4,215 nt of DNA, from IMG/VR virus record IMGVR_UViG_2534682294_000022; one strand, 5' to 3'. This DNA comes from a virus (lineage: Duplodnaviria; Heunggongvirae; Uroviricota; Caudoviricetes). Below the pieces are notes generated by a model. The model saw nothing but the letters and a program-made list of their open reading frames with translations, did no database searches and was not told where the DNA came from. The translations under genes and the position numbers were made by a program. Shown in pieces: positions 319 through 2,622 of this stretch (the stretch's first letter is position 1; every line of letters begins with the position of its first letter).

Positions 319-714
319 ATGGCGAAACCTTTTACACACGAACAGCGTGAAGAACTGAAGGCCCGAATTATCGGGCTGGTACGCAAAAATGAACGCATGA
401 CGATATCACAACTGGAGAGAGCGACGGGAGCAGGCTGGCATTCAGTCAGACGTTGCCTTGTGGATGTACTGGCTTGCGGCGATTTATACATGCCCGGTAA
501 ATACGGTGTTTTTACATCAGAACAGGTGTATCGCGTATGGCGTAAGGCAGCGGAGAAAACAACCGACCAGACATTGATTCGAAAGTTACCAGACGGAGAA
601 ATACGCCGCTACGACAGACAACAGAACATAATCTGTGGCGAGTGCCGGAAGAGTGAAGTTATGCTGCGTGTACTGGCGTTCTATCAGGGCAATTTTCAGG
701 AGGCGGTATTGTGA
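319..714 (+). CDS. hypothetical prophage protein, 131 aa, possible helix-turn-helix segment (TISQLERATGAGWHSVRRCL)
   Basis: ATG 319 preceded by GGAGG 309-313 at 5 nt spacing. ORF is co-directional with neighbours. The HTH call is from sequence pattern only. Confidence 0.65.
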   Translation: MAKPFTHEQREELKARIIGLVRKNERMTISQLERATGAGWHSVRRCLVDVLACGDLYMPGKYGVFTSEQVYRVWRKAAEKTTDQTLIRKLPDGEIRRYDRQQNIICGECRKSEVMLRVLAFYQGNFQEAVL

Positions 715-770
715 GTGAATTAGCTATCAGGCTTCAATTGTCGCTGGCATTCACATCAAAGGAGAAGAGC

Positions 771-1127
771 ATGGAAATAAAACCAGAAGATGAGTTAAGC
801 AATATCGTTTTATTTCCGGTAAAAGAGGATGACCCACGTAATCAGGTTAATTTTCTTTATGAGCCATCGGAAAGAGCATATTGTCATCACGCCTCTGTTC
901 GGGTTGACGAAAAAGAGCGTCAGGTCCGCTGTAAAATCTGCGGTGCAGTTGTGGAGCCATTTGACTGGATGCTCTCTGTGGCGAAAAGAGAAACCAGACT
1001 GGCAGATGATGTAAGGATCTTGCGCCAGGAGGAACGGGAAAGGCGGAGAAATATAGAAAAGCTAATTCAGATTGAGCGTAACGTGAAAGCGCGGATACGC
1101 AGGGTGACAAAATCCAGAACTGAATAA
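771..1127 (+). CDS. hypothetical protein, about 118 aa, zinc-ribbon-like C-H-H...C-x-x-C motif with Arg/Lys/Glu-rich C-terminal tail
   Basis: ATG 771 preceded by AAGGAG (about 759-764) at about 6 nt. The track's GTG 711 start has no SD and overlaps the upstream stop, so 771 is preferred. Motif YCHHASVRVDEKERQVRCKICG, then tail RLADDVRILRQEERERRRNIEKLIQIERNVKARIRR. Confidence 0.6.
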   Translation: MEIKPEDELSNIVLFPVKEDDPRNQVNFLYEPSERAYCHHASVRVDEKERQVRCKICGAVVEPFDWMLSVAKRETRLADDVRILRQEERERRRNIEKLIQIERNVKARIRRVTKSRTE

Positions 1128-1175
1128 TTAAATTTAGCTCTGTTAAAAATTTAATCCTTAACCGGAGGTATATCA

Positions 1176-1388
1176 ATGTCAAACGCACAGAAAGTTATTA
1201 ACGCTGAAAAATATAACGAGTGGGTGAAAAAGTTCTCAGAGCAGATTTTTAAAATTACTGGCGACGAGAATGCGGCAAAAAATGAATTAGAGCCGTGGAC
1301 ACCTGAAGGTGTCGACCCAAATTATTGCTGGTGGGATGTTGATCCAGTTGATGCTGCAAATGAAGCTATGAGTTATCACAACGATTAA
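1176..1388 (+). CDS. small strongly acidic Trp-rich protein, 70 aa, unknown function
   Basis: ATG 1176 preceded by GGAGG 1164-1168 at 7 nt. Hand count about 14 Asp/Glu against 6 Lys. C-terminal half EPWTPEGVDPNYCWWDVDPVDAANEAM. Confidence 0.65.
   Translation: MSNAQKVINAEKYNEWVKKFSEQIFKITGDENAAKNELEPWTPEGVDPNYCWWDVDPVDAANEAMSYHND
1327..1334 (+). other. Chi octamer 5'-GCTGGTGG-3' (E. coli RecBCD hotspot sequence)
   Basis: Exact octamer read in the sequence, inside the CDS 1176-1388. It is functional only if the host is E. coli-like. Confidence 0.5.
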
Positions 1389-1392
1389 TGTC

Positions 1393-1415
1393 AGGAGGCC
1401 GCCCGAAAGGGCGGT
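1393..1415 (+). promoter_or_regulatory. Shine-Dalgarno AGGAGG (1393-1398) followed directly by a GC hairpin (stem CCGCCC 1399-1404, loop GAAA 1405-1408, stem GGGCGG 1409-1414); candidate structured ribosome-binding region for the gene starting at GTG 1424
   Basis: Perfect 6 bp G/C inverted repeat with a GNRA-type tetraloop read directly from the sequence. No T-run follows, so it is not a typical intrinsic terminator. Confidence 0.4.
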
Positions 1416-1423
1416 AATGAAAA

Positions 1424-1795
1424 GTGACTGAATTAACCAAAGAGAAATTAATCGAAGAAGCCAAATTAAAAATAGCGATTGCGAAATGCTACCCCAATTC
1501 AGGGATGGCACGGGTAGAGGGCGAGTTATTCAAAATTGCACTGGCATCGCTGGAAGCAGAACCGATAGCGTGGGAATGCGGTGAAAACATAATCCTGTTT
1601 AACCCTGACACAGTTGAAGCATACGCAAAACGTGCGGAAATATCACCTAAACCACTATTCTCCGCGCCGCCAGCGCTGGTAGTGCCTGATAAGTTGCCGC
1701 GTGAATACAGAAACGGTTGGCCTCTTGCGTATAGTGATTATGCTGAAGGCTGGAACGACTGCCGCGAAGCCATGCTTCAGGGAGATAAATCATGA
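1424..1795 (+). CDS. hypothetical prophage protein, 123 aa if GTG start
   Basis: Frame is closed upstream by TGA 1418-1420, so the start is GTG 1424 or the internal ATG 1505. The only strong SD is AGGAGG 1393-1398, 25 nt upstream but separated by the 16 nt hairpin. The 3' end overlaps the next gene (ATGA at 1792-1795). Confidence 0.55.
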   Translation: MTELTKEKLIEEAKLKIAIAKCYPNSGMARVEGELFKIALASLEAEPIAWECGENIILFNPDTVEAYAKRAEISPKPLFSAPPALVVPDKLPREYRNGWPLAYSDYAEGWNDCREAMLQGDKS

Positions 1796-2154
1796 TTAAT
1801 CGTATCAAGCTGGAGCACATCCTCGAATATGCCAGGCAGCAGAGGCATATTGGTCAGCATTGTAAAATTCCACCAGGAGATATGGTTGAAATCATGGAGA
1901 TTGCCATGCGCAAGGCTGGCAACTCTCCGGTAACTCCGGATGGTTGGATAAGCTGTAGTGAGCGAATGCCGAACGATAAACAGTATGTTTGGTGTTGGGG
2001 GAAGTCTTACGGCTGGACTGAGTGCGATACCTTCGAAGGGTATTACGATTGTTCGAGAAACAAATGGTGGGCAGTTACTGACAATGGGGAAGAACCGGCA
2101 TCGAAAGTAACCCACTGGATGCCGCTACCGGAGCCGCCGCAGGAGGTGAAATGA
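1792..2154 (+). CDS. phage accessory protein, 120 aa, with Cys/Trp-rich C-terminal domain ending THWMPLPEPP (recalled as DUF551-like; unverified)
   Basis: ATG 1792 overlaps the upstream stop; SD AGGGAGA 1779-1785. Family assignment is from memory of the C-terminal motif, not from a search. Confidence 0.7.
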   Translation: MINRIKLEHILEYARQQRHIGQHCKIPPGDMVEIMEIAMRKAGNSPVTPDGWISCSERMPNDKQYVWCWGKSYGWTECDTFEGYYDCSRNKWWAVTDNGEEPASKVTHWMPLPEPPQEVK

Positions 2155-2237
2155 TGAATTGGCCTGAAGCATTCACCGCAGTTGGAGTTGCAATAGCGGT
2201 GGCATTTATTCTGTATTCGCTTTTCCGCTGGGGATAA
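2154..2237 (+). CDS. candidate 27 aa hydrophobic single-helix microprotein (MNWPEAFTAVGVAIAVAFILYSLFRWG); 28 aa if started at ATG 2151
   Basis: Not in the supplied track. Tandem ATGs at 2151 and 2154 overlap the upstream TGA (2152-2154). Strong SD AGGAGGT 2141-2147, 6 nt from ATG 2154. A 19-residue uncharged hydrophobic stretch; stop TAA 2235-2237 sits 4 nt before the next start. Confidence 0.4.
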   Translation: MNWPEAFTAVGVAIAVAFILYSLFRWG

Positions 2238-2241
2238 AGGA

Positions 2242-2484
2242 ATGTTCGCTCTGATTCAACGTGGTCAGATATACACGGACAGAGCCGGATACCCTGTGGT
2301 GATTACTCGCAGTACTCAGCACTCAGTGTTCTTTCGACGCATGGACGGGCGCTCCGGACGGGTACGCATTGGTGAGTTCAACAACCTGTTCGAACATATT
2401 GACCAACAGGAGTACCGCAAAATTCTGGCGGGCACTGAGCAGGAAATGCGCCTGAAAAAATTACGCGCAATGCAACGGAGGTGA
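2242..2484 (+). CDS. small basic prophage protein, 80 aa, unknown function
   Basis: ATG 2242 lies 4 nt after the preceding stop. ORF ends at TGA 2482-2484, inside the SD of the next small ORF. Resembles small conserved proteins found next to xis/int in enterobacterial prophages, from memory only. Confidence 0.65.
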   Translation: MFALIQRGQIYTDRAGYPVVITRSTQHSVFFRRMDGRSGRVRIGEFNNLFEHIDQQEYRKILAGTEQEMRLKKLRAMQRR

Positions 2485-2487
2485 TAC

Positions 2488-2622
2488 ATGCATACGGCTT
2501 TTGAGTTCTGGGTTCGCAAGACATTCGGCAATCGCTACGACCTGACCCGTGATGTCGACGGCTTCTACTGCCGTGAAGTTGTGAAACGAATGTTTGACGT
2601 GTGGTGCCACTGCCGTGGATGA
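2488..2622 (+). CDS. candidate 44 aa Cys/Trp/Phe-rich small protein (MHTAFEFWVRKTFGNRYDLTRDVDGFYCREVVKRMFDVWCHCRG)
   Basis: Not in the supplied track. ATG 2488 preceded by GGAGGTGA 2477-2484 at about 6 nt. It fills the otherwise gene-free gap between 2484 and 2641. Stop TGA 2620-2622. Confidence 0.5.
   Translation: MHTAFEFWVRKTFGNRYDLTRDVDGFYCREVVKRMFDVWCHCRG

Follow-up and report, generated by a model that had tools for sequence, protein, structure and literature searches.

In phage lambda, ren is the first gene after P, and its product lets the phage escape Rex exclusion. Another region of lambdoid phages, exo-xis, lies between exo/bet and xis and is read toward xis and int; its genes, expressed early from pL, are dispensable and modulate the choice between lysis and lysogeny, and its part next to xis is variable (PMC10834534, PMC8614690). 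Ea22 of Shiga toxin (Stx) phages is a mosaic with exchangeable C-terminal domains, of which DUF551 is that of the V2 variant; full-length Ea22 favours lysogeny, an activity shown for the full-length protein and not for the C-terminal domain alone (PMC10834534). YfdS, a DUF551 protein of prophage CPS-53, affects peroxide sensitivity and, in multicopy with YfdQR, inhibits initiation at oriC (PMC4776307). The only characterised DUF4222 protein, RgdR (ECs1581) of a P4-like prophage of Escherichia coli O157:H7, acts as an activator of the LEE1 promoter and of type III secretion and as a repressor of motility (PMC3378721, PMC10877973), and R20 in its RGD motif matters for activity (PMC3378721). Here we compare with these systems a dense run of small open reading frames (ORFs) beside xis and int in a 4,215-nucleotide stretch of E. 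coli lambdoid prophage DNA (IMG/VR virus record IMGVR_UViG_2534682294_000022). The whole stretch is referred to as the window, and the run of small ORFs at positions 319-2622, defined from an ORF listing and a reading of the sequence, as the block.

We consider it likely that the block consists of eight passenger genes of O157-type lambdoid early operons, belonging to at least five independent cassettes, and that the window is a very recent recombinant between two such operons. Eight plus-strand ORFs with products of 28-131 amino acid residues (aa) form an unbroken head-to-tail chain over the block, followed by xis and int. In order, they encode a DUF977 protein, a zinc-ribbon protein of 118 aa, an acidic protein of 70 aa, an Ea22-like protein of 123 aa, a DUF551 protein, a membrane microprotein of 28 aa, a DUF4222 protein and a Cys/His-containing peptide of 44 aa. 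Seven of the eight match Pfam or PHROG families at E <= 1e-16 and the eighth, the microprotein, is conserved under purifying selection; thus, the ORFs of the block are not chance open frames.

Two early operons and their junction

Over its right part (1533-4215) the window has 100% identity with the int end of the Stx1 phages YYZ-2008 and VT1-Sakai and with many O157:H7 chromosomes. In YYZ-2008 this part is the last stretch of the leftward early operon, where N, kil, gam, bet, exo, DUF1382, ZapA-like and DksA/TraR-like (orf73 type) genes, Ea22 and three small ORFs precede DUF551, DUF4222, the 44-aa ORF, xis and int. All 10 sampled contexts of the exact DUF551 protein share this order and have mlrA (yehV) beyond int; such context look-ups covered the 24 largest index blocks each. 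Positions 1533-2622 hold the exo-xis location in all identical copies. They are base-for-base the xis-proximal variable end of VT1-Sakai and YYZ-2008, and, like the genes of the described region, theirs are small, read toward xis and int, and probably dispensable, early and pL-driven (PMC10834534, PMC8614690). Lambda, 933W and phi24B differ in having ea8.5, orf55 and gp05 at this spot. The window also lacks the conserved exo-xis core orf60a-orf63-orf61-orf73-ea22, which lies upstream in YYZ-2008, and its left half is normally foreign to the region.

The left part (1-1973) matches O157:H7 strain E32511 at 99.8% (four mismatches) and 17 other loci at 97.2-97.6%. Its home is the rightward operon, as seen in 10 of 10 contexts of the exact 123-aa protein, in 10 of 10 contexts of the exact DUF977 protein and in E32511. 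There, genes for a repressor, cro/YdaS, YdaT, a replication initiator and a helicase loader (DnaC-like or lambda-P-like) are followed by DUF1627, DUF977, the 118-aa, 70-aa and 123-aa genes, DUF551, a 34-aa ORF, hok, DUF968, rusA and Q. This left cassette was seen with two different replication modules, and in Rac-like O157 prophages it sits at the lambda ren/nin position. It differs from the lambda region in having no nin gene save the Ren relative described below, and in the window it runs into xis-int, not into rusA and Q. Its first gene lies outside the block and is represented in the window by the 3' part (last 100 codons; 1-303, plus strand) of a DUF1627-family gene (phrog_11856, E 3e-58; phrog_630, E 7e-50), which matches an annotated 256-aa DUF1627 protein of E32511. 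An earlier note on this DNA had placed the whole block in the lambdoid region transcribed toward xis and int. This is accurate for 1533-2622, the exo-xis end, whereas all examined copies of 1-1973 at 97% identity or more follow replication genes; such copies of 1-1532 do not hold the exo-xis location. A short DUF1627-domain gene adjoins the integrase end of the Stx2a phage ArgO145 (12966-13343 of locus L032), which shows that genes of this family also occur outside the post-replication position.

The two donor matches overlap over 441 bp (1533-1973), a segment defined, irrespective of strand, by nucleotide identity to both the E32511 copy and YYZ-2008. Within it the two donors differ only at 1681 and 1923, and the window is of the YYZ-2008 type at both positions. 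On these alignments the window appears to be a hybrid, in which a Rac-like post-replication cassette gives way to the exo-xis end of a Stx1 phage; the switch would lie inside the shared segment and to the left of 1681, since the window is Stx1-type at both sites where the donors differ. The same boundaries recur in other genomes: a total of 18 post-replication copies (E32511 and the 17 other loci) share the left-type limit at 1973, and 11 Stx1-type loci the right-type limit at 1533, which marks the segment as a discrete mosaic block. Identity to the Stx1 phages starts inside the 123-aa gene, so this gene is itself hybrid and contains the left edge of the shared segment. The DUF551 gene has its N-terminal half in the segment, and its C-terminal DUF551 domain is of the Stx1-phage type.

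No record covers the window at 80% or more among 50,697 phage records or 5,426 complete E. coli genomes, and none of the latter spans 1400-2300. A junction pattern (left anchor, 443 N, right anchor) gave 0 matches in IMG/VR, in GTDB representatives (scanned as one genome per species) and in JGI metagenomes, and the hybrid order was not met in exact-protein contexts (three proteins, 10 places each). Strain FRIK944 (NZ_CP016625.1) carries both donor cassettes, at 3135724-3137323 (minus strand) and 3207431-3210113 (plus strand). They lie about 70 kb apart in inverted orientation, so that a single inversion through the 441-bp segment would produce the gene order of the window. The Stx1-type module was not located in E32511, the closest donor of the left half, and the recombination geometry is illustrated by FRIK944 only.

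Matches to other phages start and stop at a small set of positions, which we took as cassette limits. The DUF1627 and DUF977 genes are found alone (1 to about 773, 93% identity) in two E. coli loci that diverge beyond this point. The 118-aa and 70-aa genes recur as a pair (about 740-1430, 92%) in two phages, ArgO145 (leftward region) and one that is P1-like, in each case after an Ea22-like gene. In a different phage (L008), with a terminase gene downstream, the companion of the 70-aa gene is the 123-aa gene, and the match extends to the first half of DUF551 (1120-1970, 99%). From about 2107 onward, the last 15 codons of DUF551, the 28-aa ORF, DUF4222, the 44-aa ORF, xis and int are shared with BP-4795 (95.6%), JLK-2012 (93%) and Stx1_14040 (87%), in all three of which the DUF551 domain is joined to other N-terminal parts. 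The DUF4222 and 44-aa genes, which may be a two-gene unit, also recur alone (about 2229-2636, 84-88%) in unrelated E. coli including O104:H4, the match stopping just before xis. At least five sub-cassettes therefore recur independently, and in the collections searched the two halves of the window are never adjacent elsewhere. Genes of a single system would be expected to travel together; since these do not, the block is not one functional system. The earlier note had treated it as one unit and had proposed a comparison across related prophages, and it is this comparison that separates the unit into cassettes.

Ren, Ea22 and RgdR relatives among the products

The first product of the block, a basic protein of 131 aa (319-714), belongs to Pfam DUF977 (E 3e-72) and to phrog_142 (1.7e-43), a family labelled 'Ren-like exclusion protein'. 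BLASTP gave an alignment to lambda Ren that spans 87 aa (29% identity, E 2e-6), and the two proteins have a common C-terminal motif, ECRxSxxMxRVLAxY. Lambda Ren (1681-1971 of L023) matched no Pfam-A family at E <= 0.01, although it shares PHROG 142 with DUF977 proteins, so that Pfam-based annotation misses the link. Their relative places are also equal in donor contexts: in each of the 20 sampled contexts of the exact DUF977 and 123-aa proteins, and in E32511, the DUF977 gene is downstream of the replication genes, the corresponding upstream part of the window itself lying outside the sequence. The differences are that Ren has 96 aa as against 131 aa, that it is not in Pfam DUF977, and that a DUF1627 gene stands between DUF977 and the replication genes.

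The second gene (771-1127) encodes a protein of 118 aa with a predicted zinc ribbon and a long helix (phrog_1621, 4.8e-54). Its family is narrow, with 119 clusters from Enterobacterales; in the alignment C38, H40, C54 and C57 are nearly invariant, and the basic C-terminal helix is highly conserved. In the AlphaFold2 model (predicted local distance difference test score, pLDDT, 72.8) a zinc ribbon at residues 38-62 is followed by one 55-residue helix (63-117). A Foldseek search of the PDB with this model returned nothing below E 0.49, the best match being the TFIIB zinc ribbon, and the likeness to Pfam TFIIB was likewise sub-threshold; the best structural match being non-significant, the model points to no function. 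In some Escherichia relatives the module is joined behind the Ead/Ea22 N-terminal region. The proteins concerned are P0125, P0122 and P0163, relatives of the product of 771-1127, and P0160, P0161 and P0177; some of the called products also carry a DUF977 domain. Both kinds of fusion suggest that the 118-aa protein may be one more of the exchangeable C-terminal modules of Ea22, and that genes become fused by read-through or frameshift. At 711 there is an in-frame GTG which overlaps the DUF977 stop codon (GTGA, 711-714); it would give a product of 138 aa and is used by one gene call (locus L005), but we rejected this start because the N-termini of homologues align at the ATG at 771.

The 123-aa product (1424-1795, GTG start) has no match in Pfam. 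It belongs to phrog_5117 (2.6e-50), is Ea22-like without the coiled coil, and ends in GWNDCREAMLQ. The 120-aa DUF551 protein (1792-2154) matches Pfam DUF551 (PF04448) over residues 51-117, at 7.8e-19 and with a score of 68.8 bits against a cutoff of 22. On phrog_60, a long Ea22-like profile, the two products cover consecutive stretches, that of the 123-aa protein being positions 116-230. The DUF551 family has more than 6,800 relatives, many of them joined behind Ead_Ea22, so that the 118-aa module and DUF551 are alike in having relatives with this fusion. They differ from Ea22 itself in that no window ORF matches the Ead_Ea22 N-terminal/coiled-coil domain (PF13935); the modules of the window are free-standing. 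The AlphaFold2 model of the DUF551 protein, built on a 48-sequence alignment, had a pLDDT of 51.7 and was unusable, and we did not search with it. From these family memberships, the middle of the block may best be described as a series of free-standing Ea22 C-terminal modules (zinc-ribbon-helix, Ea22-like and DUF551). The acidic 70-aa protein (1176-1388, isoelectric point (pI) 4.36) and the 44-aa peptide (2488-2622), which contains three Cys and two His residues, matched only PHROGs without assigned function (phrog_4659 and phrog_3871, respectively).

The DUF4222 protein (2242-2484, 80 aa; Pfam DUF4222, 9e-16) scores 57.6 bits against a cutoff of 27, and RgdR scores 82 bits (2e-23). The aligned core is RGQIYTDRAGYPVVI in the window protein against RGDIYRDQYGGTVMI in RgdR, with a conserved R-G-x-I-Y-x-D-x-x-G. 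Both proteins are prophage-borne, small and very basic (pI 11.1 for the window protein and a published 10.09 for RgdR). RgdR of prophage Sp7/OI-51 of O157:H7 Sakai is longer (99 aa), the window protein being without the N-terminal 13 residues, and its gene precedes the primase gene in a P4-like element, whereas the window gene adjoins xis in a lambdoid phage. In the register of the profile, R20-G21-D22 of RgdR is aligned with R7-G8-Q9 of the window protein, and the RGD tripeptide is absent from the latter. An activity in common with RgdR is thus hypothetical, since the window protein has neither the RGD motif nor the N-terminal extension.

The 28-aa ORF behind the DUF551 gene

Between the DUF551 and DUF4222 genes lies a 28-aa ORF (2151-2237; MMNWPEAF...RWG) with a grand average of hydropathy (GRAVY) of +1.14, predicted to encode a single-pass membrane protein. 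It is annotated in none of the RefSeq phage and genome records viewed, nor by the gene caller of the contig collection, and it matches no Pfam or PHROG family. No instance of its motif was met in the searchable literature or in the supplements of small-ORF surveys. A tblastn search with the microprotein returned 92 phage records, and 28 loci hold five variants of it. Those beyond the window type include variants of the Stx2 phage Min27, of ArgO145 and of Av-05 and 18-1-2, which are virulent Vequintavirinae phages; copies with the WPEAF...RWG motif lie at 1501-1584 of L027, 2501-2584 of L028, 1501-1584 of L030 and 9876-9959 of L032 (ArgO145). A paralogue, MIWPEAFAITGVAIAIDFLVYVICRWG, is found in the post-replication cassette after a DUF551 gene of its own (11151-11234 of L001); its DNA is 71% identical and the ORF is intact. 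The uncorrected ratio of non-synonymous to synonymous differences per site (pN/pS) is 0.23-0.66, with pS up to 0.81, that is, with synonymous sites near saturation.

The position of the ORF is also conserved. In every locus, of temperate lambdoid or virulent Vequintavirinae phages, in which the end of the upstream coding sequence was checked, the ATG of the microprotein overlaps the stop codon of the upstream gene; in the checked loci these upstream genes end in a DUF551 domain or in an Ea22-like '...CRxAML' tail, and a strong Shine-Dalgarno sequence is conserved before the start. Min27 has no annotated plus-strand gene that ends at the start of the microprotein, and coupling was not seen there. 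The copy in Shigella phage POCJ13 (1501-1581 of L029) has TAG at the conserved Trp codon 3 with the rest of the ORF kept, and is the only copy with a premature stop; it is a pseudogene or a sequencing error.

We regard the ORF as a real, predicted single-pass membrane microprotein of a conserved phage family coupled to DUF551/Ea22-type genes. A chance open frame in the spacer between DUF551 and DUF4222 would account for its lack of annotation in all records viewed, for the lack of a family match and for its absence from the supplements of small-ORF studies. We find such a frame very unlikely, given that the ORF stays intact, of equal length and with WPEAF...RWG at 71% nucleotide identity, that it is found also in virulent Vequintavirinae phages and, by tblastn, in phage records in large number, that its pN/pS values were obtained at high pS, and that the Shine-Dalgarno sequence and the overlap of its start with the upstream stop are kept in the checked loci. 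The ORF does not have the traits of a Hok-like type I toxin: it has no Rfam match and no Pfam HOK_GEF match, and it is translationally coupled within a sense operon, unlike Hok-type genes with their own promoter and antisense RNA. Only tentatively do we put forward a further step, namely that the 27-28-aa peptides (M-x-WPEAF-x2-G-x-[AV]-[IM]-A-[VI]-x2-[ILAV]-[LV]-Y-x3-RW[GR]), as a genuine and previously unannotated phage family, each work as a two-gene unit with the upstream module. In such a unit the microprotein might, for example, be the membrane tether or the effector of the DUF551/Ea22 module, whether the process is the lysis-lysogeny decision, superinfection exclusion or host takeover.

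Operon features and interpretation

The genes of the block are tightly packed. The 123-aa and DUF551 genes overlap by ATGA at 1792-1795, and ATGATG at 2151-2156 covers the end of DUF551, whose TGA is at 2152-2154; the remaining spacings, in order through xis and int, are 56, 48, 35, 4, 3, 18 and 33 nt. Both overlaps had been recognised in the earlier note, whose range of gaps (4-50 nt) becomes 3-56 nt. The chain continues into genes for a XisR-type excisionase (xis, 2641-2895, plus strand; Pfam DUF1233, 2e-29; phrog_539) and an IntR-type tyrosine integrase (int, 2929-4215, plus strand; Pfam Arm-DNA-bind_2 and Phage_integrase). A clear GGAG-type Shine-Dalgarno sequence precedes all starts except those at 1424 and 2242. 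As the earlier note had stated, there is no intrinsic terminator: a consensus scan found no plus-strand terminator-like site in 319-2622. Overall, terminator-like sites were at chance level (5 against 4.7 expected), and promoter-like sites were rarer than in shuffled sequence (3 against 6.1 expected). Because the genes are co-oriented, tightly packed and terminator-free, the arrangement is most simply read as one transcribed jointly from an early promoter upstream.

A GC-rich hairpin of 7 bp with a GAAA loop (GCCGCCC-GAAA-GGGCGGU, 1398-1415, plus strand; -18.5 kcal/mol, z = -3.2) occupies the 35-nt gap 5' of the GTG-initiated 123-aa gene. It has no U-tract, and the terminator scan did not report it; a role in processing or stability is conceivable, or else it might modulate the weak translation start 9 nt downstream. 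No RNA family was found by an Rfam scan of the whole window at E <= 1. We also dropped a lead to Pas small RNAs near DUF1627 genes, as a preprint puts these RNAs beside holin/lysozyme genes.

The earlier note had counted nine ORFs of 27-131 aa in the head-to-tail chain; the chain is as described, and it has eight members of 28-131 aa. A ninth would need an overlapping out-of-frame ORF of 27 aa at 635-718 or the alternative GTG start at 711. ORFs on the minus strand (e.g., 847-1188 and 1777-2115) were rejected as wholly antisense to family-supported plus-strand genes and annotated in no record viewed. Computed pI values, motifs (CxH...CxxC in the 118-aa protein), GRAVY and residue counts bear out the earlier description of the products as acidic, zinc-ribbon, membrane and Cys-rich. 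None of the products is assigned to replication, recombination or housekeeping functions, in keeping with the earlier remark that none is housekeeping-like; homology to ordinary replication or recombination functions was looked for and not found, and NCBIfam had no match for any product of the block. The label 'LygF', found in some phage records, led only to Salmonella genome announcements and to no function.

That the block is a dedicated anti-defence or host-takeover island, its genes acting together, was the candidate function put forward before. Small acidic, zinc-binding, membrane and Cys-rich products do resemble the general look of anti-defence genes, early operons are a frequent location of such genes, and for six of the eight products no close relative has been characterised. 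The independent recurrence of the sub-cassettes and the lack of any other adjacency of the two halves speak against it, as does the fact that the only characterised relatives (lambda Ren, Ea22, YfdS and RgdR) are regulators of phage development or of host genes. PADLOC gave only a sub-significant hit to mad1 (E 0.0066, no passing stretch) in the helix-turn-helix part of the DUF977 protein, and sequence searches of the PDB with the DUF551, DUF4222, DUF977 and 118-aa proteins returned no match. No significant match thus came from PADLOC, NCBIfam or the PDB, no anti-defence profile set having been searched. With relatives of this kind and genes that travel apart, we consider such an island very unlikely, although a single gene may still have an anti-defence role. 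The unusual gene order is a separate matter. A 441-bp repeat is a classic cause of mis-joined contigs, and the junction could be an assembly artefact, in which the repeat of two prophages in one genome was bridged wrongly and the neighbourhood never existed in a cell. Both sides of the junction are near-identical to common O157:H7 sequence (99.8% and 100%), the switch falls exactly in a repeat exceeding short reads, both donor prophages are present in many O157 genomes, and the join is absent from all the genome, phage and metagenome collections named above. The sequence itself bears no mark of an artefact, homologous exchange between co-resident O157:H7 lambdoid prophages is well documented, and the inverted copies of FRIK944 would give exactly this join by a simple inversion; we judge an artefact to be possible. 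We hold it to be unlikely, too, that the window represents a real and functional variant of exo-xis in a viable phage, with exo/bet/N upstream, which acquired the DUF1627-to-DUF551 cassette by cassette exchange. The leftward region of ArgO145 near int does have relatives of the 118-aa and 70-aa genes together with a DUF1627-domain gene, and the P1-like phage has 118-aa/70-aa relatives after Ea22-like genes, so that such genes can reside there. Those copies, however, reach only about 92% identity and extend over no more than 740-1422, every examined copy of the full 1-1973 at 97% identity or more follows replication genes, and no phage record covers the window.

Several observations weigh against our own interpretation of the block as passenger genes in a recombinant of two operons. 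Diverged copies of some left-half genes are found in true leftward regions, so the left half is not a strict marker of the rightward operon. The hybrid could exist in draft assemblies beyond the sample read. The window starts in frame at codon 157 of DUF1627 and ends on the stop codon of the integrase, which makes attL and its own upstream context (replication genes or exo/bet) unreadable. Among the products, the DUF977 protein is a distant relative of Ren (29% identity), the DUF4222 protein is a distant relative of RgdR (37% over 27 aa, with RGQ for RGD), and the functions of Ren, Ea22, YfdS and RgdR are themselves only partly understood.

To the anatomy, family memberships, mosaic boundaries and genomic contexts observed here, the interpretation as passenger genes adds the following picture. 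The cassettes would move independently between phages and between the two early operons. Positions 1-1973 would come from the post-replication cassette of Rac-like prophages (rightward operon, ren/nin position) and 1533-4215 from the xis-proximal exo-xis end of a Stx1 prophage at mlrA (leftward operon), with the switch made by homologous exchange inside the 441-bp common segment. The genes would be cargo on N-antiterminated early transcripts running on into xis and int, and would partly be translated by coupling. Expression as such cargo is probable, since there are no terminators and no good internal promoters and several genes are translationally coupled. Each product would act alone, as a minor and dispensable influence on the development of the phage or the physiology of its host, a role demonstrated for other exo-xis genes (PMC8614690, PMC10834534). 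We propose as such modulators the Ren homologue, the three free-standing Ea22-type modules and the membrane microprotein coupled to the DUF551-type module, as well as the RgdR-like basic protein and its 44-aa companion, which may adjust host transcription. Should the arrangement be real, xis and int of a Stx1 prophage would be reached, across the block, by transcription that starts in the rightward operon of a Rac-like prophage.

By its sequence relationships, the region is of an already known kind, its right half being that of published Stx1 phages and of exo-xis, and its left half the cargo that common O157 prophages carry at the ren/nin position. In the collections searched the hybrid order has no precedent, and it is either a trivial recombinant or an artefact; only the microprotein family and the RgdR-like gene beside xis are additions to knowledge. 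The locus may serve as a calibration case, in which very small ORFs packed closely next to xis-int give the impression of a system and yet are the familiar dark matter of lambdoid early operons, which hundreds of sequenced O157:H7 genomes contain and which has in part been studied as exo-xis. The 441-bp segment of two prophage classes is a substrate for recombination between prophages, which could put xis-int behind a replication operon or invert about 70 kb. The conserved membrane microprotein is missing from every annotation examined, and, if it does form a two-gene unit with the upstream module, it would give a first mechanistic handle on the widespread DUF551/Ea22 C-terminal modules. Since type III secretion and motility of EHEC are tuned by RgdR paralogues, the RgdR-family gene (RGQ variant) beside xis in the Stx1 prophage is a candidate link between Stx1-prophage induction and virulence-gene control.

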